Counted from the first letter of the stretch, positions 6,387 to 14,451 are shown. The stretch is DNA of 19,279 nt from a bacterium (GCA_041640655.1 JBEPZV010000040.1:1-19279), one strand, 5' to 3'. A program made the numbers and translations. The notes: a model not told the origin generated them from the letters alone.

Positions 6387-6920
6387 TCACGCGCGCGGAG
6401 GGTGGGAGGAGGCAGACGGGAGATTCTCCTCCAGCCGGGGGAAAAGGACCCGTTCCTCTCGATGGACGTGCTCGATGATGACCTCGATGATGCCTTCGCC
6501 GATGGCGATCACCCGCCGGATGGTCTCGCGCTCATCCGTCTCGCGCTTGAGCCGCTGCAAGGCGCGCTTGAGCTGACGACATTCCTTCTCCACGCCATCA
6601 TCCCCGGCGATGATCGTCCGAATCTCGCGCTCGCGCGAGAGGCCACTTCGCCTGAGCAACGGGCGCAAGGTCCGGCGCTCCCGCAGCATGTGCGGATGAA
6701 TGCGATCCACAAGCAGCGCATGGAGAGACTCCAGGACGGGGATCACCGCCGTCGCCTCAGCCCGCTCGAGCGACAGACGCGCGAGCGATTTGTCCAAGCG
6801 CCGTAATTCCTTCAACAGGACCCGATGTTCTTCGCGTAAAGCCTCGATCTCCGCCCGCGATCCTTCGGCAAGCCCCCGATCACCGGAGACACTCGAGCGC
6901 CTGCGCCTTTTCTCCACCAT
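6387..6920 (-). CDS. Hemerythrin/HHE-domain protein
   Basis: ATG 6920 preceded by GAGGAGGAGGG. Four-helix pattern with LREEH, HMLRE and EHVHREERVLFPRLE (HxxxEExxLFP). A TATAAT lies at 6959-6964 on the minus strand. Confidence 0.8.
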   Translation of the reverse strand: MVEKRRRRSSVSGDRGLAEGSRAEIEALREEHRVLLKELRRLDKSLARLSLERAEATAVIPVLESLHALLVDRIHPHMLRERRTLRPLLRRSGLSREREIRTIIAGDDGVEKECRQLKRALQRLKRETDERETIRRVIAIGEGIIEVIIEHVHREERVLFPRLEENLPSASSHPPRA

Positions 6921-7009
6921 GCCCTCCTCCTCGCGCAACCTCAGTGTGTCACGCGCTGATTATAGCCCACTCGGGATGAGAGAAGAAAACCAGACTCGCC
7001 TGCTTCTCC

Positions 7010-7049
7010 AAAATAAAGAGGAGCCGGGAACTTCATATCCCGGCCCCTC
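7010..7049 (-). terminator. Rho-independent terminator closing the small-peptide/structured-RNA transcript
   Basis: Minus strand GAGGGGCCGGGA-TATGAAGT-TCCCGGCTCCTC-TTTATTTT: 12-bp stem (1 G-U) followed by a U-rich tail. Confidence 0.85.
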
Positions 7050-7060
7050 GCTCTCGGAGG

Positions 7061-7288
7061 GTCGTACGAATCGCTTCACGGTCCTAAGCGGCCCGTGAGC
7101 ATCGGTCGGGCTTCACAACGTCCGTGATAAACATCTTCACAAACACCCCAGCGAAGCGAACAACTCGCTTCACCAAGATCAAAAACCATCGCGTGACGAG
7201 AGGCTCATCCCAAGTAAAGACCTGCTACTTGGTAATGGCCAAAGTGGTACACATGAACCGCTACTGCTACATCTCATCCACCATGAGA
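7061..7288 (-). ncRNA. Putative structured RNA (long 3' region of the peptide transcript, or an sRNA domain)
   Basis: Near-abutting hairpins folded by hand on the minus strand at 7272-7288, 7232-7264, 7210-7232, 7146-7178, 7120-7144 and 7061-7119. Many pairs are G-U, which only work on this strand. The region lies between a promoter and a terminator and has no RBS-supported ORF. Confidence 0.45.
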
Positions 7289-7366
7289 AACGCCCGCATC
7301 GAGCACGTTCACGAACTGGACGAAGAATCGGTAGAAGGCAAAGAGGATCAGCAGCCACAGTTCCAT
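7274..7366 (-). CDS. Small hydrophobic peptide, 30 aa: MELWLLILFAFYRFFVQFVNVLDAGVSHGG
   Basis: Very strong RBS (AAAGGAGGAGG) directly upstream of ATG 7366; TGA at 7274-7276. Codons are mostly G/C-ending like host genes (CTG, ATC, CTC, GCC, TTC, TAC, GTC, CAG, AAC). It has its own promoter and terminator, and is below the ORF-track size cutoff. Confidence 0.65.
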   Translation of the reverse strand: MELWLLILFAFYRFFVQFVNVLDAGVSHGG

Positions 7367-7436
7367 AGAGACCCCCTCCTCCTTTCATTGTTCTCCGGCG
7401 CGTCCACCCACCCGGCGACGGGCCGGCGGCCCGCGC

Positions 7437-7462
7437 GAAAACCCGAAAACCGTCGGGTTTTC
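7437..7462. repeat. Perfect 10-bp inverted repeat GAAAACCCGA-N6-TCGGGTTTTC at the predicted transcription start (5' hairpin or operator)
   Basis: Seen directly; it begins 7 nt downstream of the TATAAT -10 box on the minus strand. Confidence 0.7.
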
Positions 7463-7469
7463 AGGCTCT

Positions 7470-7497
7470 ATTATATGCAAACGGAGATTTCAGGCAA
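7470..7497 (-). promoter_or_regulatory. Sigma70-type promoter for the peptide/RNA transcript
   Basis: Minus strand TTGCCT-N16-TATAAT (perfect -10), with an A6 tract just upstream of the -35 (UP-element-like). Stands out in a GC-rich background. Confidence 0.75.
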
Positions 7498-7562
7498 GTA
7501 GATTTTTTCCTCTCCGCCCGATCAAGTCTTTGGGGCAGTCCCGTGAGGTGGAAGATAGGACT

Positions 7563-8987
7563 TCAGAGGCCGTACTGTTTCTTCTTCTTCTGGATGTGCA
7601 CCCGCGTGGTGCCGAGCAGCTCTCCGGCCCGGGTCAGGTTATTCCCGGTCTGTTCGAGCGCCTTTCGGATGAGGAAGATCTCCAGCGCCTCCTTGGCCTC
7701 ATACCACTTGGGCAGGCGCGTCCCATCCACGATGAACTGTTCTCCTTCGATGCGAATCCGGCCGGCCTCCAGTTTCTGCCGGATGCGCTCGAACTCGGCG
7801 CGAAACCATGCGTGCGGATATTCGGTCAGAAGCCGCTCCGCCCGCGCGAGCCACTCGCGCGCCTTCATGGGTTGAACTGAGAGCATCAGTTCGGCGAGAT
7901 AGAGACAGGCTGGCACCTCAACCTCTCGGCTCTGCAATCGTTCACCGATCTCCAACGCCTGTCGCAGTGCCTTCTCACTCTCATAGTATCGGCCCTTCAA
8001 AAGAGCGACGCGCCCGAGCTGCACCAGGGCACATCCCTTTTCGAATTCGCCTCCAGCCAGTTCCGCATATTCCAGCGCTTGCCGACCATACACATATGCC
8101 TTTTCTAGTGCTCCTTGGCCAATGTACAGCTCAGCAAAAGAGGAAAAAATCCTACTGGCAGTGCCAATATCTCCAATCCTGTGAGCCAATTCGGAACTCT
8201 CTCGCAAAAGTAACTCGGCTTCCTCATGTTGTCCAAGCCAAATCAAGGCTACAGCCATATCGTTACTTGCATGCTCAAGATCGTGAAAACTACCAAGCCC
8301 TTCAAAGATACTTCTCGCTTCCCGGAATGTTCTTACTGCCTTCGAATACCGCCCCAGATATAAGTGAAGACAACCTAGGCTATTTAAAGCCAAACCGTAA
8401 TAGCGCTTTTCCTCACAAGCATTCAAGGTCTCTACAGCTCTTTCAAACAAGGCCTCAGCTTCCCCTAAATGTCCCTGCTCGAAGCGACACACCCCGAGAT
8501 TGAACCACACGAGCCCGCGAAGGAACCCAGCACGATGGGCGTCATCGTTTTTGATTTGCTCAAGGGTACAATTGAGCAGCTTCTCGGCCTCTTGGAAATT
8601 CGCGCGTCGGCGTTCCAGGCGGCCGAGGTTATAGAGGGCGACGGCCTGTCGGAAGGTGTTACCGAGGAACTTGTAGAAGTGGAGGGCGATCTGAAAATGC
8701 TCCTCGGCCTCTTCGTAGCGATAGAGCCAATAACTCAACTCCCCGCGAGCCATCGCATATCGGGCAGCTACCTCCACGTCCTTCGCCTCGGCGGCGACCT
8801 CATCGAGCACGCGCTCGGCCTCGCGGAGGCGCGAGAAGTAGATCTCGATTTCCGCCTGGAGCACCTGGGCGAGCGGCGTCTTCTCGCGGATGTCCCTCAG
8901 AGCCTTTTCGGCCGTCACGAACTGGCCGGCGTCAATGAGATCGGCGATAGTGGATGCCGTGACCTGAAGCTCGCGGACTCGAGGCAT
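7563..8987 (-). CDS. TPR-repeat protein with C-terminal Fis-type helix-turn-helix; putative ligand-sensing transcription regulator (paralog 1)
   Basis: ATG 8987 with GAGGAGG RBS; 474 aa. Multiple TPR-like repeats (ALYNLG...FQEAEKLL, FNLGVC.FEQG.LGEAEALFERA, LNSLG.LHLYLGRYSKA). C-terminus LIRKALEQTGNNLTRAGELLGTTR matches the Fis/NtrC HTH pattern (AL..tgGN.t.AA.lLGisR). No Walker A or GAFTGA motif, so no AAA+ domain. Confidence 0.88.
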   Translation of the reverse strand: MPRVRELQVTASTIADLIDAGQFVTAEKALRDIREKTPLAQVLQAEIEIYFSRLREAERVLDEVAAEAKDVEVAARYAMARGELSYWLYRYEEAEEHFQIALHFYKFLGNTFRQAVALYNLGRLERRRANFQEAEKLLNCTLEQIKNDDAHRAGFLRGLVWFNLGVCRFEQGHLGEAEALFERAVETLNACEEKRYYGLALNSLGCLHLYLGRYSKAVRTFREARSIFEGLGSFHDLEHASNDMAVALIWLGQHEEAELLLRESSELAHRIGDIGTASRIFSSFAELYIGQGALEKAYVYGRQALEYAELAGGEFEKGCALVQLGRVALLKGRYYESEKALRQALEIGERLQSREVEVPACLYLAELMLSVQPMKAREWLARAERLLTEYPHAWFRAEFERIRQKLEAGRIRIEGEQFIVDGTRLPKWYEAKEALEIFLIRKALEQTGNNLTRAGELLGTTRVHIQKKKKQYGL

Positions 8988-9074: not shown

Positions 9075-9085
9075 GGGGGGAGGCG

Positions 9086-9129
9086 GAAAATACGGCGTTT
9101 GCCGGAGGAAAATCCGGCGATCGCCGGAG
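9086..9129. repeat. Tandem 22-bp imperfect direct repeat with palindromic cores (operator pair or tandem thyX terminators)
   Basis: GAAAATACGGCGTTTGCCGGAG (9086-9107) and GAAAATCCGGCGATCGCCGGAG (9108-9129), 19/22 identical. The second unit contains the perfect palindrome TCCGGCGATCGCCGGA. On the minus strand each hairpin is followed by TTTT. Confidence 0.7.
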
Positions 9130-9209: not shown

Positions 9210-10760
9210 TCAGATCAATCGCCGATACTCGCTCAGGTCGAGCCGCCAGACCGGGACGCCGCAGAAGCGTTCGCCCTCCGGGCAGGTCGGGCGAGTATTG
9301 GCCAGCTTTCGGAGCGCGCAGGGTGGAAGTAAGTACCTCCCGATTGTCGGGTTCACCTCGCGGATTTGCCGCGCTTCATCCACGGAAGCTCGCCAGATCT
9401 CTTCCTGCGCGAGATAACAGAGCCGCATGGCATGCTTGTGTCGGAGATTGAGCAGATCGGCCGATTCCGTATAGCGAATGGCGACGGCGTTCGGCAGCAG
9501 GTACATCGCATACTCATCGCGAACGCCGCGCGCTCTCAATCGGGTGATGGCCGACCAGATGCGCTCCATGGTTTCGACGTAGAAGCGCTCGACCTCCGCC
9601 TCACATCGGATCAGCTCGGGGATGATGAAATCCGGCTCCACGCTGAACTGGGTCGTCAGGCAGGGGCGCGAGGCAGGCGTCAGGCGATGCCGCTGATCCT
9701 GGGAATCGGCCGCGTGGCTGAGCTTCTTGCGGAATGTGTAGCTCGGATGATGGAGTGCGCGGGAGAGTTTGGAGAGCGTCGTCAGGTTCAACGACTCGCC
9801 AAGCAACCGATTCCGCGCCGGATTCAGGACCAACTCGATGGCCGCCCGGTCATCGAGCGCTGCCCGCGGGACTCCGAGGACTTGCCGCACGGCATCGGCC
9901 AGGGTCGCCTCATTGTGGAGCTTGTAATCCACGAGCTTGGAGACATGCCCGTCGAGGCTGCGATCGAACTCCTCGCGGAACGTGTGCCTCGCCTCCCATC
10001 CCAGCGTCTCGAAATGCGCGGTGAAGAAGGCGAATTCGGGCGTCTCCTCAAGCGGGATCGGCTCCTCGAGGATGCGCGCATAGAGCGGATCCCAGCGCAA
10101 CACTTCCTGGACCATCTTCTCGACGACGAGGCGCTGCTCATGCGGGGCGTCCCACTGCTGACAGAGCCGGTAGTAGCGGAGCAGGGTGATCGCGCTGATC
10201 GTGTGGTAGAGATAGGCGAACGTCGCCACGGGCAGCACGTATCGGGCGACCTCCAGGCATCGCTTCTCGATTGCCGCGCGATATTTCTTCTCGGTCGTCC
10301 GACGATGGGGGAAGAGGCGGCGATATTCGCGCTCGACGATGGGGAAGAGCCTCTCGGCCAAACGACGGTACGCCGCCATTTGGAATTCGATGGTCTCCAG
10401 ATAGAGCGTCAGACTCTCTCCGTTGAGTGGCGGGATGACGACGTTCCCTGGCGCGACCTCGACGTAGCGCTGACTCACCTGCTCGGAGTTGTAGAAGGGA
10501 TGCGCGTGCAAGAAGGACCAGATGAATTGCCGGGAGACGTTCGCCAGGGAGAATTGAAAATGCGCGTGCTCGATGGTCGTATGATGCCCGGCGCGGTAAA
10601 GCCTCTCGGCGAGCGCCTCGGCGCCGTCCTTGAGGTCCTCCTCGCGCACGATCCCTCGGCTCGAAGAGCACGTCCGCGCGGCCGTGAGGATCGTCTTGAA
10701 GGGGTTCACGAACGCCTTCTCCAACCTCACGATGGGCTCCGGCGAGAGGAATCGCTCCAT
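9210..10760 (-). CDS. thyX: FAD-dependent thymidylate synthase, long two-domain form
   Basis: Likely start is ATG 10760 (MERFLSPEP..., 516 aa); the track's N-terminal extension overlaps the FecR gene. Domain 1 has GHHTTIEHAHFQF..NVSR, EQVSQRY and ARYVLP. Domain 2 has SQDQRHR, YLLPNA, RLC..AQEEI and CPEG..FCG. Confidence 0.88.
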   Translation of the reverse strand: MERFLSPEPIVRLEKAFVNPFKTILTAARTCSSSRGIVREEDLKDGAEALAERLYRAGHHTTIEHAHFQFSLANVSRQFIWSFLHAHPFYNSEQVSQRYVEVAPGNVVIPPLNGESLTLYLETIEFQMAAYRRLAERLFPIVEREYRRLFPHRRTTEKKYRAAIEKRCLEVARYVLPVATFAYLYHTISAITLLRYYRLCQQWDAPHEQRLVVEKMVQEVLRWDPLYARILEEPIPLEETPEFAFFTAHFETLGWEARHTFREEFDRSLDGHVSKLVDYKLHNEATLADAVRQVLGVPRAALDDRAAIELVLNPARNRLLGESLNLTTLSKLSRALHHPSYTFRKKLSHAADSQDQRHRLTPASRPCLTTQFSVEPDFIIPELIRCEAEVERFYVETMERIWSAITRLRARGVRDEYAMYLLPNAVAIRYTESADLLNLRHKHAMRLCYLAQEEIWRASVDEARQIREVNPTIGRYLLPPCALRKLANTRPTCPEGERFCGVPVWRLDLSEYRRLI

Positions 10761-10806
10761 AGGGTCTTCTGCTCCCGAATCACATAGGCTGCTCACGCGA
10801 GAAGGG

Positions 10807-10835
10807 AGTATACGGCCTCCCCGCTTCAAGGGCAA
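10807..10835 (-). promoter_or_regulatory. Sigma70-type promoter for thyX
   Basis: Minus strand TTGCCC-N17-TATACT, ~46 nt upstream of ATG 10760; supports the shorter start. Confidence 0.65.
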
Positions 10836-10892
10836 GCACGCCCTCTGCCCGAGCCGACCTGATGCGGCCCTCGGGTTTTGTCGCACTCCTCT

Positions 10893-10920
10893 TTGAGCAG
10901 AGGACGACCCGTAGTATACT
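10893..10920 (+). promoter_or_regulatory. Sigma70-type promoter for the FecR-domain gene
   Basis: TTGAGC-N16-TATACT, 77 nt upstream of ATG 10998. Confidence 0.55.
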
Positions 10921-10997
10921 TGTGTCGAAGGTTCGGGGGCGAATTGGCGATTCCGCCCTGATCCTTCAGGAGAGTTTGAGGCGATGGAGGGAGGACG

Positions 10998-12071
10998 ATG
11001 AGGAAAACTGCCGCAATGCGTTCCGCTGTATTCGTCCTCGGCTTGCTCGTAGCTTTCGGCGGATGGGTCAGGGCGAAGGCTCAGTACGTCGTCTCGGCGC
11101 GCGCCGGTTTGGTCAATTACACGCAAGGCGAGGTTTGGGTGCAGACGTCCTCGGACACGCTCGTCCGAAGGCTCGCCCCACATCACCAATTGGACGATGG
11201 AGACGCGGTGCTCACAAAGAGCGGCCGAGCCGAGATCCTCCTGAATCCGGGATCGGTCCTGCGACTCGATCGAAACACGGAGGTTCTCTTCTCTCGAACG
11301 GACCTCCCGCTGGTGGAATTCGGGGTCGCCACGGGCGCGGTGCTCCTTGAAGCGGCGGATTTGAATCGCGAGGTCATCCTTCGGGGGCAAACGCCTCATG
11401 CGAGCTTTCGGATCAAAAAGAGCGGGCTTTATCGAGTAGATGTGCGCACGGACGCGACGCGCTTTCTGGTCCGAAGTGGAGAGCTGGAACTATGGGCTGA
11501 GGGGCGGATTCAGAAGCTGAAGAAGGGTCAACAGGCGACGGTGACTCCTGCTCACGTCGAGGTGGTGAAGCTGCCGAAGCTGGGACCGCTTGATGAGTTC
11601 GAGCTGTGGGCGAAAGACCGCGCGGAGGTTTTGGTCGCGGCGAATCGGTCGTTGACGCGTCGTCGAGGTTTCGGCTATAGCCTCATGGCGAGCCTGTGGG
11701 TGTTTGATCCCCTTCTGGGCGTCTATACCTTTGTGCCGTTCGGATTCGACTTCGCGTCCCCGTGGGGTCGGCGCCTCGTCTATCGGTGCCCGTATCCGAC
11801 CACGTGGTATTGGGGACCATATAGAGGAGGGCCCGATCATGGAGGTTCACCGGGAGCCATACCTTCACCGACGACGCCCTCTGAACGTTCGCGACCGAGC
11901 TTCCGCGTAGGAGACGGCCGCTTGGAACGCGGGGACGTGCTCGCGCCCGGCCCGGCTCTTGGCGGACGAGGCGAAGGGCCAGGCCTGCATCGGATGCCGG
12001 CGCCTTCGGCCCCGGTCGGAGGAGAAGTGCGATCGGCTCCGGGTCCGGTGAAGGCTCCGCACCATCAATAG
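10998..12071 (+). CDS. Exported FecR-domain protein with Pro/Gly-rich C-terminal tail
   Basis: GGAGGGAGG RBS; signal peptide ending AKA. FecR-like beta pattern GLVNYTQGEV...LDDGDAVLTKSGRAEILLNPGSVLRLDRNT...GLYRVDV...VRSGELEL, then DEFELWAKDR, an aromatic-rich segment and a low-complexity tail. Confidence 0.8.
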   Translation: MRKTAAMRSAVFVLGLLVAFGGWVRAKAQYVVSARAGLVNYTQGEVWVQTSSDTLVRRLAPHHQLDDGDAVLTKSGRAEILLNPGSVLRLDRNTEVLFSRTDLPLVEFGVATGAVLLEAADLNREVILRGQTPHASFRIKKSGLYRVDVRTDATRFLVRSGELELWAEGRIQKLKKGQQATVTPAHVEVVKLPKLGPLDEFELWAKDRAEVLVAANRSLTRRRGFGYSLMASLWVFDPLLGVYTFVPFGFDFASPWGRRLVYRCPYPTTWYWGPYRGGPDHGGSPGAIPSPTTPSERSRPSFRVGDGRLERGDVLAPGPALGGRGEGPGLHRMPAPSAPVGGEVRSAPGPVKAPHHQ

Positions 12072-12207: not shown

Positions 12208-12930
12208 TCATTTTCGCGGCGGCTTTGAGGGGCGAATCTCCACGCAGCTCGGGAGGCTCGCCGGATCGTGCTCGAGCAGATGGAGGACGACACGGGCGAC
12301 GTCCGAGGGCTTCAACTTCCATGCGGATTCCGCCGTCGGCTCGCGTCCGCTGAACTCTGTGGCGACACTGCCGGGCATGATGTAACTCACGCGGATGTTA
12401 TCGTAGCGCAGGTCCTGCATGATCGCTTCGCTGAATCCATTCAAACCGAACTTCGAGGCATTGTAGGCGGCGCCCCCGGCGAATGCATTCTTCCCCGCGA
12501 GCGAGCTGATGTTGATGATGTATCCGCCGCCGCGCTGCCGCATGTATCCGATGACCTCGCGGCAGCAATAGAAGACGCCCGTGAGATTGGTCTCGATGAC
12601 CTCGTGCCACTCTTCGGGCGTCAGCTCGTAGATGCTGCGGAAGACGCCCACACCGGCATTATTGACCAAGATGTCCACGCCGCCGAAGGTCCGAACCGCG
12701 TATTGGACCAGCTCGCGCACCTGCGTGAGATCGCGCACATCGCACGGGAGGGCCGCGACGCGCCCCGGCGCCTTCGGCTCCAGTTCAGCGAGTGCATGTC
12801 GCACGGCCTCCGCTCGACGTGAGCAGAAGACCACTGACGCGCCCGCATCGAGCAAAGCCTCGACGATCGCGCGACCGATCCCGCGCGTGCCTCCGGTCAC
12901 GATGGCGATTTTCCCCCCGAGCGTCCCCAT
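12208..12930 (-). CDS. Short-chain dehydrogenase/reductase (SDR) family oxidoreductase
   Basis: TGGTRGIG, DILVNNAG, NISS and catalytic YNASK; GGAGG RBS. Confidence 0.95.
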   Translation of the reverse strand: MGTLGGKIAIVTGGTRGIGRAIVEALLDAGASVVFCSRRAEAVRHALAELEPKAPGRVAALPCDVRDLTQVRELVQYAVRTFGGVDILVNNAGVGVFRSIYELTPEEWHEVIETNLTGVFYCCREVIGYMRQRGGGYIINISSLAGKNAFAGGAAYNASKFGLNGFSEAIMQDLRYDNIRVSYIMPGSVATEFSGREPTAESAWKLKPSDVARVVLHLLEHDPASLPSCVEIRPSKPPRK

Positions 12931-13023: not shown

Positions 13024-14451
13024 TCAGAGATTAAACTGCCGACGCAAGTTATGGACGTGCACCTTCGTGATCCCCAGCAATTCCCCTGCCTTCGTGAGAT
13101 TCCCCCCCGCTTGCCGGAGCGCGTTCTTCAGCAGAAACCGCTCCAGCGTCTCTCGCGCCACGTACCAATTCGGAAGGAAGTTCCCGTCGAAGATGAGCTT
13201 ATTGTCGGGCGTGAGCCTGATGCGCTCGCTTGTCGCGCGCTGTGAGACGCGCTCGATCTCCCGCTCGATCTGCGGATCGGCCAGCGGACGGAGCAGCTCT
13301 CGCGCGCAGGCGATCAGCTCCTGAGCCTTCATGGGCGAGGTCGCGTAACAGGCTTCGCCGAGATAGAGGCAGGCGAGTCCCTCCAACTTCCGATCGCCGA
13401 GACCTCGGGCGATCTCACGGGCGACCGAAAGTGCCGCCTCCGCCGCCTCGTGATCGCGCCGTCGCGCTGCCGCGCGACCGAGAAGGAGCTGCGCCTCCGC
13501 CCGCAAGCGATCATCCCGAAGGGCCTCCGCATGCTCCAGAGCGAAGCGAGCGGACTGCTCCGCGCGCGAGACGTCATTCCGCTCAAGGTAGACGTCGGCG
13601 AGCGCCTTGAACGTCCGTCCCAATCCGCGTTCATGCCCGAGGTGTTGGAGTACGCCGAGGCTCTCCGAGAGCGCCTGCTCGGCCTCGGCGAATCGCTCCA
13701 GGCGAACGAGCGCCAGAGCGAGCGTGCCGGTGATGTCGGCGAGGTGATCGCCAAGGGCATACCGGGCCAGAATGCGTTGCGCTTCCCGCAACGGCTCGAT
13801 GGCCTCAGCGCACTGTCCGCAGGCTACGAGCACGGCGCCGAGCGCGCCCAGGGCGGAGGCGTAATAGCGGCCATGCTCCTCGTCCAACAGTCTCAACGAG
13901 GACTGGAGCGAGGCCCGAGCCTCCTCGACCCGCCCCGTATGGGCCCGCCATGCGCCCAAGGCGTACTCGATCACACCGCGCATGAAATCGCCCTGCGCTG
14001 TCTCTTCATCGGCCAGGAGCGCCTTCGCCCGCTCCCACAGCGCTTCCGCGTCTTCCCCCCTTCCCTGTTTGAGCTTCGCCTCACCGAGATGATAGAGCCC
14101 GCGCGCCAGATGGCAGCGCGCCTCCAGCAGCTTGCAGATACAACAGGCGCCGTCCAAGACCTCCTCCGCCAAGTCCCACTGCTCCTGTTCCACATACAAC
14201 TGGCCGAGAACGGTGAGATAGCGCGGGAGCGACTGCACATTCAATCTCCAGGGATTGACCTGCGAGAGGCATTCTCGGGCGCGCTCAGGGCGACAGAAGT
14301 AGAGATGCACCTGGGCCTCTAGGATGGCCGCCAGTGGATCTTCATCAGCCGTGAGATTCGGGAGCATCCGTTCGGCCTCCTCGAATCTCCCCGCATCAAT
14401 CGAATCCATGAGCTTCGCGATCCACGCCGATCCCTCTCTGGTCGCCCGCAT
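13024..14451 (-). CDS. TPR-repeat protein with C-terminal Fis-type HTH (paralog 2)
   Basis: 475 aa; GGAGGGAG RBS. Collinear with 7563-8987: IDAGRF vs IDAGQF, GDFMRGVI vs AGFLRGLV, RYY, ACLYLGE vs ACLYLAE, and LPNWYVARETLERFLLKNALRQAGGNLTKAGELLGITKVH vs LPKWYEAKEALEIFLIRKALEQTGNNLTRAGELLGTTRVH. Confidence 0.88.
   Translation of the reverse strand: MRATREGSAWIAKLMDSIDAGRFEEAERMLPNLTADEDPLAAILEAQVHLYFCRPERARECLSQVNPWRLNVQSLPRYLTVLGQLYVEQEQWDLAEEVLDGACCICKLLEARCHLARGLYHLGEAKLKQGRGEDAEALWERAKALLADEETAQGDFMRGVIEYALGAWRAHTGRVEEARASLQSSLRLLDEEHGRYYASALGALGAVLVACGQCAEAIEPLREAQRILARYALGDHLADITGTLALALVRLERFAEAEQALSESLGVLQHLGHERGLGRTFKALADVYLERNDVSRAEQSARFALEHAEALRDDRLRAEAQLLLGRAAARRRDHEAAEAALSVAREIARGLGDRKLEGLACLYLGEACYATSPMKAQELIACARELLRPLADPQIEREIERVSQRATSERIRLTPDNKLIFDGNFLPNWYVARETLERFLLKNALRQAGGNLTKAGELLGITKVHVHNLRRQFNL

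Follow-up and report, generated by a model that had tools for sequence, protein, structure and literature searches.

A conserved 30-codon gene adjoins a TPR/HTH_8 regulator in Blastocatellia and weakly resembles small partner genes of related regulators

We report that a 30-codon open reading frame (ORF) downstream of a regulator gene, in a 19,279-nt stretch of bacterial DNA (GCA_041640655.1 JBEPZV010000040.1:1-19279, hereafter the window), is real, conserved and linked to that regulator, that the pairing of such regulators with small genes recurs within the regulator family, and that the C-terminal motif of the ORF product resembles a motif of the other small partners. Within a 3.1-Mb genome in 128 contigs, the window corresponds to contig C40, and the locus lies on its minus strand. 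There, a regulator of 474 aa (7563-8987), composed of about 10 tetratricopeptide repeats (TPR) and a Fis-type helix-turn-helix (HTH) of the HTH_8 family, is followed in order by a promoter, a Shine-Dalgarno (SD) sequence, the ORF, a terminator and a hemerythrin-domain gene, with 196 nt between the stop codon of the regulator and the ATG of the ORF. The relatives of this genome are metagenome-assembled genomes of Blastocatellia (Acidobacteriota), several of them from hot springs according to public records, and the window carries a gene for a TonB-dependent-type outer-membrane barrel; both agree with the diderm host assumed in the original prediction, which was made from the DNA sequence and proposed that the two genes form a receptor-peptide signalling system. 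We tentatively favour a different reading, in which the pair is a functionally coupled module of a regulator and its cognate small envelope protein, and consider it quite possible although short of probable.

The ORF (MELWLLILFAFYRFFVQFVNVLDAGVSHGG, 7274-7366 on the minus strand, stop codon included) is intact in all seven genomes of the genus, with identical start, stop, length and SD sequence, and the sequence right after the stop diverges. It is also present in 7 of 7 metagenome loci in which the regulator is at least 71% identical. In these 14 loci, which comprise 12 distinct coding sequences, the ORF adjoins the regulator in the same orientation without exception, at a distance of 192 to 203 nt, or 390 nt in one genome (G006). 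Variable sites are distributed 13/5/20 over the three codon positions, pairwise dN/dS ranges from 0.045 to 0.51 for the 19 computable pairs out of 21, and pN/pS is 0.20 for the hydrophobic body (codons 1-22) and 0.31 for the tail (codons 23-30). Eighteen residues are invariant (M1, E2, L3, L6, L8, F9, F11, Y12, R13, F14, F15, Q17, L22, D23, G25, V26, G29 and G30). The 556-nt intergenic region has a match in all six remaining genus genomes (E 1.5e-34 or better), in none of 54 further relatives (best E 0.0011) and nowhere else in its own genome. Likewise, when the class was searched with a peptide profile, the seven genus genomes had a single copy each (E 3.7e-19 or better) and the remaining 394, a count that takes in four unpublished genomes (G296, G129, G373 and G357), had no credible match (best E 0.014). 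Neither Pfam nor NCBIfam contains a match for the ORF. Among 1.84 billion representative proteins, the profile gave three matches: a 30-aa gene-caller product of the same family (P0001, E 4.4e-18), a 62-aa protein (P0002) and one noise match. P0002 joins the start of a frame antisense to the hemerythrin gene (plus strand, from 6363) to residues 10-30 of the small protein, and the inverted join that this implies makes an assembly chimera most likely. On the basis of the intact start, stop and SD in all 14 loci together with purifying selection, we regard 7274-7366 as a genuine gene for a very hydrophobic 30-residue protein. The original prediction was therefore right to see here a conserved, separately promoted small gene that is invariably linked to the regulator.

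Two other lineages of TPR/HTH_8 regulators in the same Blastocatellia order also have a co-oriented small gene downstream. The encoded partners contain a signal peptide and one or two copies of a lineage-specific G-x-T-x-G-G-(R/K)-P motif; they are 105-126 aa long, apart from a 55-aa form in one genus that has no Trp-rich segment. A profile of the partners matches 11 of the 401 class genomes, all of them in this order, and each of the 12 matches comes directly after a TPR/HTH_8 gene in the same orientation. Each genome of the genus studied here carries three TPR/HTH_8 paralogs, and the third one (G000:C4:74563-76333; locus L103, 2025-3837) is followed after about 20 nt, in an operonic arrangement, by a gene for a partner of 122 aa. 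This protein combines a signal peptide with a doubled GVTAGG(K/R)P(Y/F), a stretch rich in Gly and a hydrophobic C-terminus rich in Trp. Copies of the motif occur twice within a protein, and its sequence depends on the lineage (GVT[AM]GG[KR]P[YF], GQTHGGRPF, REGHTGRPGG and RESHAG[RK]P). In the genus g5, the 55-aa partner has a signal peptide and a single GDGHTGHR, and its gene lies about 275 nt downstream of the regulator behind a promoter-like TTTACT-17-TACAAT, read by eye. Partners fall into eight 90%-identity clusters in a set of 5.8 billion sequences, all unnamed. Pfam and NCBIfam have no family for them, the ESM Atlas returned no usable match for the 122-aa protein, and a literature search found nothing relevant on TPR/HTH_8 regulators or on peptide signalling in Acidobacteria. 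These results define a previously unnamed, order-specific two-gene module consisting of a regulator and a small protein.

The promoters of these modules contain palindromes of their own. In two loci (L064 in G011 and L065 in G010), a perfect palindrome, GTAAAC-N6-GTTTAC, lies about 165-185 nt past the regulator stop, overlaps the -35 element of the 55-aa gene and is kept in both. The operon promoters of the partner clade in relatives have a TTGTCAAG-N13-CTTGACA palindrome over the -35 element. We rejected an operator shared by the promoter of the 30-codon gene and the other module promoters; an GAAAAAATC tract upstream of the -35 element is all that they have in common, and apart from the lineage-specific palindromes no common motif emerged.

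The 30-aa ORF occupies the same position relative to its TPR/HTH_8 gene, in the same orientation, as these partner genes. Like them, it encodes an N-terminal hydrophobic stretch with G-V-[ST]-x-G-G directly behind it, and its tail, G-V-[SG]-x-G-G, resembles the motif that is repeated in the partners. Residues 7-30 could be aligned by hhalign with the partner signal peptide and first motif (ILFAFYRFFVQFVNVLDAGVSHGG against VAFIVFMLGSFTLPV-RAGVTAGG, P 0.0018), with the C-terminal part of the alignment pairing ...VNVLDAGVSHGG with ...LPV-RAGVTAGG. When a hidden Markov model (HMM) of the partners was run against 20,904 ORFs of 20-60 aa from the same genome, the 30-aa ORF ranked second with 8.6 bits. 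A maximum-likelihood tree of 38 regulators groups the ones with G-x-T-x-G-G-(R/K)-P partners in one clade (7 rows, support 100/100) and the ones linked to the 30-aa ORF in another (10 rows, 100/100). The 30-aa protein is the positional, and probably also the evolutionary, counterpart of the motif-bearing partners. It looks like a minimal version, made up of a hydrophobic segment and one truncated motif, D-x-G-V-[SG]-x-G-G-stop, and the comparison hints that it either descended from the N-terminal portion of a partner gene or converged on it.

We infer a module in which the small protein would insert into the inner membrane through a helix conserved residue by residue, its topology, the direction of regulation and the regulatory output being likewise inferred. 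The TPR superhelix of the regulator would read the short conserved tail of the small protein, either at the membrane or after its release, and this contact would tune the control that the C-terminal HTH exerts on target promoters, probably including that of the small gene itself. The nearest solved folds of the regulator, which are peptide-binding TPR proteins (LGN/Pins, and Rap proteins in complex with pheromones), support such a coupling. If the TPR domain does read the motifs, regulator-peptide coupling would have been invented independently here, and the module would offer an entry point to gene regulation in Acidobacteriota of hot springs, where no genetic system is known to us.

Several observations weigh against a coupled module of this kind. 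The similarity to the partners is weak and does not establish homology statistically, as the hhalign probability is only 15% and the HMM match has an E of 2.8; the top-ranked ORF in that search is Arg-rich and looks like a chance match, and any hydrophobic ORF is favoured because the partner profile includes hydrophobic signal peptides. Unlike the partners, the 30-aa ORF stops right after GG and has no basic n-region, no (R/K)-P-[FY], no second repeat and no Trp-rich hydrophobic C-terminal segment, and no remnant of a longer partner gene was found past its stop in three frames across the 14 loci. The tree of 38 regulators leaves the branching among the paired clades unsettled. Nor is the pairing with a small gene universal, since other nearby regulator lineages precede genes without relation to the partners, namely those for a short-chain dehydrogenase (SDR) and, as judged by eye, for RNase HII-like, DsbA-like, S46 peptidase-like and MBL proteins. 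A case in point is the second paralog in the window (13024-14451, minus strand), a 475-aa protein with 33% identity to the first: an SDR gene (12208-12930) lies 93 nt behind it, and no small ORF was seen there. Of eight metagenome loci assigned to this paralog (best matches at 32-34% identity), six have the SDR gene 57-108 nt downstream, the filtered listing being empty for L115 and L121. A further misfit concerns topology, as the motif of a full-length partner would be periplasmic after cleavage of the signal peptide, which does not agree with a simple contact to a cytoplasmic TPR domain. Finally, whereas the ORF-linked regulator is 73-83% identical across five genus genomes, it is broken in G004 (locus L068, G004:C38), where an in-frame stop and a frame change occur and residues ~169-294 and 352-428 are missing, and yet the ORF is intact. 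The ORF may thus not depend on the adjoining regulator. The break may be recent, given that the surviving pieces are still 79-80% identical to the window protein; a 132-aa frame joining the TPR remnant to the HTH is still open, and G004 is itself a metagenome-assembled genome, a caveat on its disruption.

The same observations bear on another explanation, in which the ORF encodes a stand-alone small membrane protein that modulates a larger membrane complex, as other small proteins of bacteria do. Its place beside the regulator would then be inherited synteny without coupling, and its likeness to the partners would be due to chance. Retention of the ORF in G004 and the weak statistics of the partner similarity are in line with this explanation, as are the transcription unit with its own promoter and terminator and the invariance of F11, Y12, R13, F14, F15 and Q17 in the hydrophobic helix. 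Moreover, synteny within the genus extends over the regulator, the small gene, the hemerythrin gene and the TonB-dependent-type outer-membrane receptor, for example in G006. However, inherited synteny and chance would have to account for the second rank of the ORF among the 20,904 searched and for partner-type genes filling the same relative position after other regulator lineages, and no membrane-complex gene adjoins the ORF. We consider a stand-alone function unlikely.

The regulator itself matches TPR_12 (1.1e-27), TPR_MalT (7.7e-16) and HTH_8 (22.4 bits against a cut-off of 22) in Pfam, which bears out the 474-aa TPR protein with a C-terminal Fis-type HTH that had been predicted. HTH_8, at residues 452-485 of the 487-aa frame, is its only DNA-binding domain and was matched in 20 of 21 family members. 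The position of the HTH is indeed reversed relative to RRNPP receptors, as the original prediction had noted. All orthologs begin at the ATG corresponding to 8987 (MPRVRELQ...). The sequence shows no evident signal peptide or transmembrane segment, consistent with a cytoplasmic TPR receptor, and the AlphaFold2 model (pLDDT 89.3) consists of 21 helices and a beta-hairpin followed by the HTH. A profile search of the PDB gave LGN/Pins, kinesin light chain and AfsR at the top (E 5e-16 to 1e-10), with RapF and RapJ at E 3e-5. Foldseek placed LGN first (TM-score 0.56-0.70) and Rap-pheromone complexes at ranks 41-50 (TM-score 0.61-0.69). By both sequence and predicted fold, the TPR region is best described as a generic peptide-binding superhelix. 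Co-folding of the regulator with the 30-aa protein gave an ipSAE of 0.01 in both runs, which were made without controls.

This architecture leads to the reading of the original prediction, RRNPP-like quorum sensing. Here the ORF would encode a pro-peptide that is exported and cut by an intramembrane protease in the manner of SHP pheromones; its C-terminal 6-8 residues (D-x-G-V-x-x-G-G) would be re-imported, bind the TPR domain and switch the HTH. The part of that proposal that holds is the arrangement, since a TPR-HTH gene followed by a small gene with a signal peptide or a similar hydrophobic segment recurs in two other lineages, and in the present case the conserved co-oriented small gene beside the TPR regulator has its own promoter. 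The TPR fold also resembles the Rap-pheromone complexes at the TM-scores given above. Three Opp/Dpp-type binding proteins are encoded in the genome, although such proteins occur in 11 of 14 control genomes as well. The noted likeness to SHP pheromones is correct as to sequence: the invariant D23 is followed by seven residues ending in GG, as in SHP2 (MKKISKFLPILILAMDIIIIVGG) and SHP3 (MKKVNKALLFTLIMDILIIVGG), whose C8 forms are the pheromones according to the available text of PMC4162386. In addition, the true signal peptides and tandem lineage-specific motifs of the partners recall Rap-Phr systems, in which the propeptide can carry tandemly duplicated pheromones, as described in the accessible part of PMC11343458.

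The signalling step of the proposal fares less well. As the original prediction conceded, the peptide has no basic n-region; it starts with ME-, and its first basic residue is the invariant Arg13, which itself lies in the middle of the hydrophobic stretch. The residue preceding the putative cleavage site varies (A/K/L/S/N), which does not fit the cleavage rule of signal peptidase I. The body is more constrained than the tail, the reverse of what would be expected of an export signal joined to a pheromone. Positions 24, 27 and 28 of the tail are near neutral, and clearly diversifying selection on the tail was rejected, as pN/pS at these positions is 0.77 and not above 1. The regulator disrupted in G004 beside an intact ORF and the generic character of the TPR superhelix also count against this reading. 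For this class, no export across two membranes followed by re-import is known to be documented in a diderm. The RRNPP surveys describe Bacillota only, as far as their available text extends (PMC10075063, PMC9765709). We therefore regard peptide signalling by the ORF as doubtful. No less doubtful is its extension to the whole group, according to which a thermophilic diderm order of Blastocatellia would read encoded peptide signals through cytoplasmic TPR receptors with a C-terminal Fis-type HTH, with the partners as propeptides, their motifs as signals and the 30-aa ORF as an SHP-like minimal propeptide. If true, it would represent convergent RRNPP-like communication outside Bacillota with a reversed domain order.

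Returning to the small gene, its sigma-70-like promoter (7470-7509) comprises an A-tract (7509-7501), a -35 element TTGCCT (7497-7492), a 16-nt spacer and a -10 element TATAAT (7475-7470). Taken alone, TTGCCT-16-TATAAT is at chance level in a consensus scan (one site against 0.9 expected in shuffles), and terminator matches are near chance as well (four against 2.9). The significance of both elements therefore derives from conservation and not from scan scores. In an alignment of 11 sequences (the seven genus genomes and four further metagenome loci), the promoter including its spacer is identical or nearly identical, whereas the flanks diverge. The terminator (7008-7049; stem scan 7049-7018), a 12-bp stem with nine GC pairs and a T-run, begins 225 nt past the ORF stop and is kept with compensatory changes. 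Promoter, strong SD, ORF and terminator were thus all found where they had been predicted. The transcript predicted from the -10 element to the terminator is about 450 nt long and folds better than shuffled sequences (z-score of the minimum free energy -3.7); of 24 listed sequencing runs, none is registered as RNA. According to RNAalifold, the 5' untranslated region (UTR) contains two hairpins. The first (7437-7462, GAAAACCCG / CGGGTTTTC), at the predicted 5' end of the transcript, has nine pairs in a stem that is invariant or changes to G-U, and a loop that varies in sequence and length. The second (7398-7436) is GC-rich, and double-sided changes keep its pairs, for example CG to UA in 4 of the 11 sequences. 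In the SD region read from the sequence (AAAGGAGGAGGGGG, 7372-7385), the core AAGGAGGA is invariant, and base pairing of this region with codons 7-12 of the ORF is predicted in all 11 sequences (AGGAGG-CCUUCU and GGGGUC-GAUCCU), so that the strong SD is probably partly sequestered.

A predicted pairing of the SD, a long, highly structured mRNA, a hydrophobic 30-aa product and a narrow taxonomic range would also suit a type I toxin, a small hydrophobic peptide that damages membranes and whose translation is restrained by an antisense RNA and the folding of its mRNA. We consider this very unlikely, since the gene is present as a single copy at a fixed syntenic site, with one match in each of the seven genomes, and since no mobile-element context was found. 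Furthermore, a simple consensus scan, which an unusual promoter could escape, found no promoter-like site on the plus strand between 6300 and 9400 from which an antisense RNA might start. Rfam gave no match at gathering thresholds over the whole window and only noise at E up to 10 for 6900-7620.

The 3'UTR is structured as well. Its 13-pair hairpin (7146-7178) retains pairs through changes on both sides among the 11 sequences, and in a short hairpin (7077-7097) three of six pairs show two-sided changes in three or four sequences. In the consensus folds, compensatory changes support 7 of 51 pairs in the 5'UTR and 9 of 31 in the 3'UTR. Conserved helices are followed by an unpaired conserved motif, GTGAAGCCCGACC (7104-7116), a block seen in the alignments between the hairpins, just upstream of the short hairpin and the terminator. 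Such an arrangement would be in keeping with a regulatory RNA derived from the 3'UTR.

Conserved helices downstream of the ORF, together with five Phe residues (six in some relatives) and a Tyr among the 30 codons (FAFYRFFVQF), raise the question whether the locus works as a non-coding RNA or encodes the Phe-rich leader of an attenuator that controls the hemerythrin-domain gene. The Phe-rich run does recall the leaders of Phe operons. Nevertheless, this explanation is scarcely credible, because many non-Phe residues are under purifying selection and the terminator, at its distance from the stop codon, is too far away for ribosome-coupled attenuation. For its part, the hemerythrin gene lies outside the Phe pathway and has a conserved TATAAT of its own, and the absence of an Rfam match counts against an RNA of a known family. 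Even the most conservative reading of these data documents a bona fide 30-codon gene with an unusually rich conserved mRNA architecture.

As for the neighbouring genes, the hemerythrin HHE-domain gene (6387-6938, minus strand) directly follows the terminator, and its own TATAAT (GGGCTATAATCAGCG) is kept in 7 of 7 genus genomes. On the other side of the pair, a 729-aa frame (9210-11399, minus strand) contains two Thy1 (ThyX) stretches at residues 231-438 and a long N-terminal extension without Pfam match; this length is unusual for a flavin-dependent thymidylate synthase. Upstream of a promoter-like TTGACG of the regulator are two direct repeats, GCCG(G/T)ATTTTCC, 10 nt apart (9085-9118, minus strand), the first of which overlaps the T-run of the terminator of the thyX-like gene. 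These repeats also occur in G001, G002 and G006, and as a single copy in the genus g5. No tRNA or tmRNA gene was found in the window.

Among known systems, the general classes of small membrane-protein modulators and type I toxins come close to the 30-aa protein: their members likewise measure about 30 aa, form one hydrophobic helix, are made from a structured mRNA of their own and are phylogenetically restricted. The 30-aa protein differs from them in that it matches no known family, and neither a partner complex nor an antisense RNA nor a distribution in several copies was seen. With RRNPP systems, the pair shares a TPR-type peptide-binding domain and a small co-oriented gene next to it. On the other hand, an N-terminal effector domain (an XRE HTH or the Rap three-helix bundle) is replaced by the C-terminal Fis-type HTH, the ORF has neither a basic N-terminus nor a propeptide export signal, and the host is not a member of Bacillota. 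Judged by these features, the pair is not a member of the RRNPP family. The closest parallels within that family are instructive. Rap-Phr systems have a TPR superhelix of similar size, with the Foldseek TM-scores given above for RapJ and phi3T Rap complexes, and the partners of the other lineages resemble some Phr propeptides in having a Sec-type signal peptide and a short motif present twice, as far as described in the available text of PMC11343458. However, Rap proteins have no HTH, the sequence similarity to them lies amid generic TPR matches, the partners here are 105-126 aa long with a Trp-rich hydrophobic C-terminus (55 aa in one genus), and the 30-aa ORF has no signal-peptide n-region and no duplicated motif. 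Rgg/SHP systems likewise combine a cytoplasmic repeat-domain regulator with an adjacent, very short, hydrophobic and separately promoted ORF, and share the Asp-initiated, GG-ending tail discussed above (PMC4162386, in its available part). In contrast, Rgg proteins have an N-terminal XRE-type HTH instead of a C-terminal HTH_8, the TPR region here is closest to generic TPRs, the ORF starts with ME- and has no Lys-rich N-terminus like that of the SHPs, its tail is Gly/Ser-rich and not Ile/Val-rich, and the host is a diderm member of Acidobacteriota. In the accessible text of the surveys, cytoplasmic TPR receptors beside small peptide genes are a speciality of Bacillota and their phages (PMC10075063, PMC9765709), whereas in the present diderm phylum small genes, of 30 aa, 55 aa and about 105-126 aa, recur beside a regulator whose domains are ordered differently.

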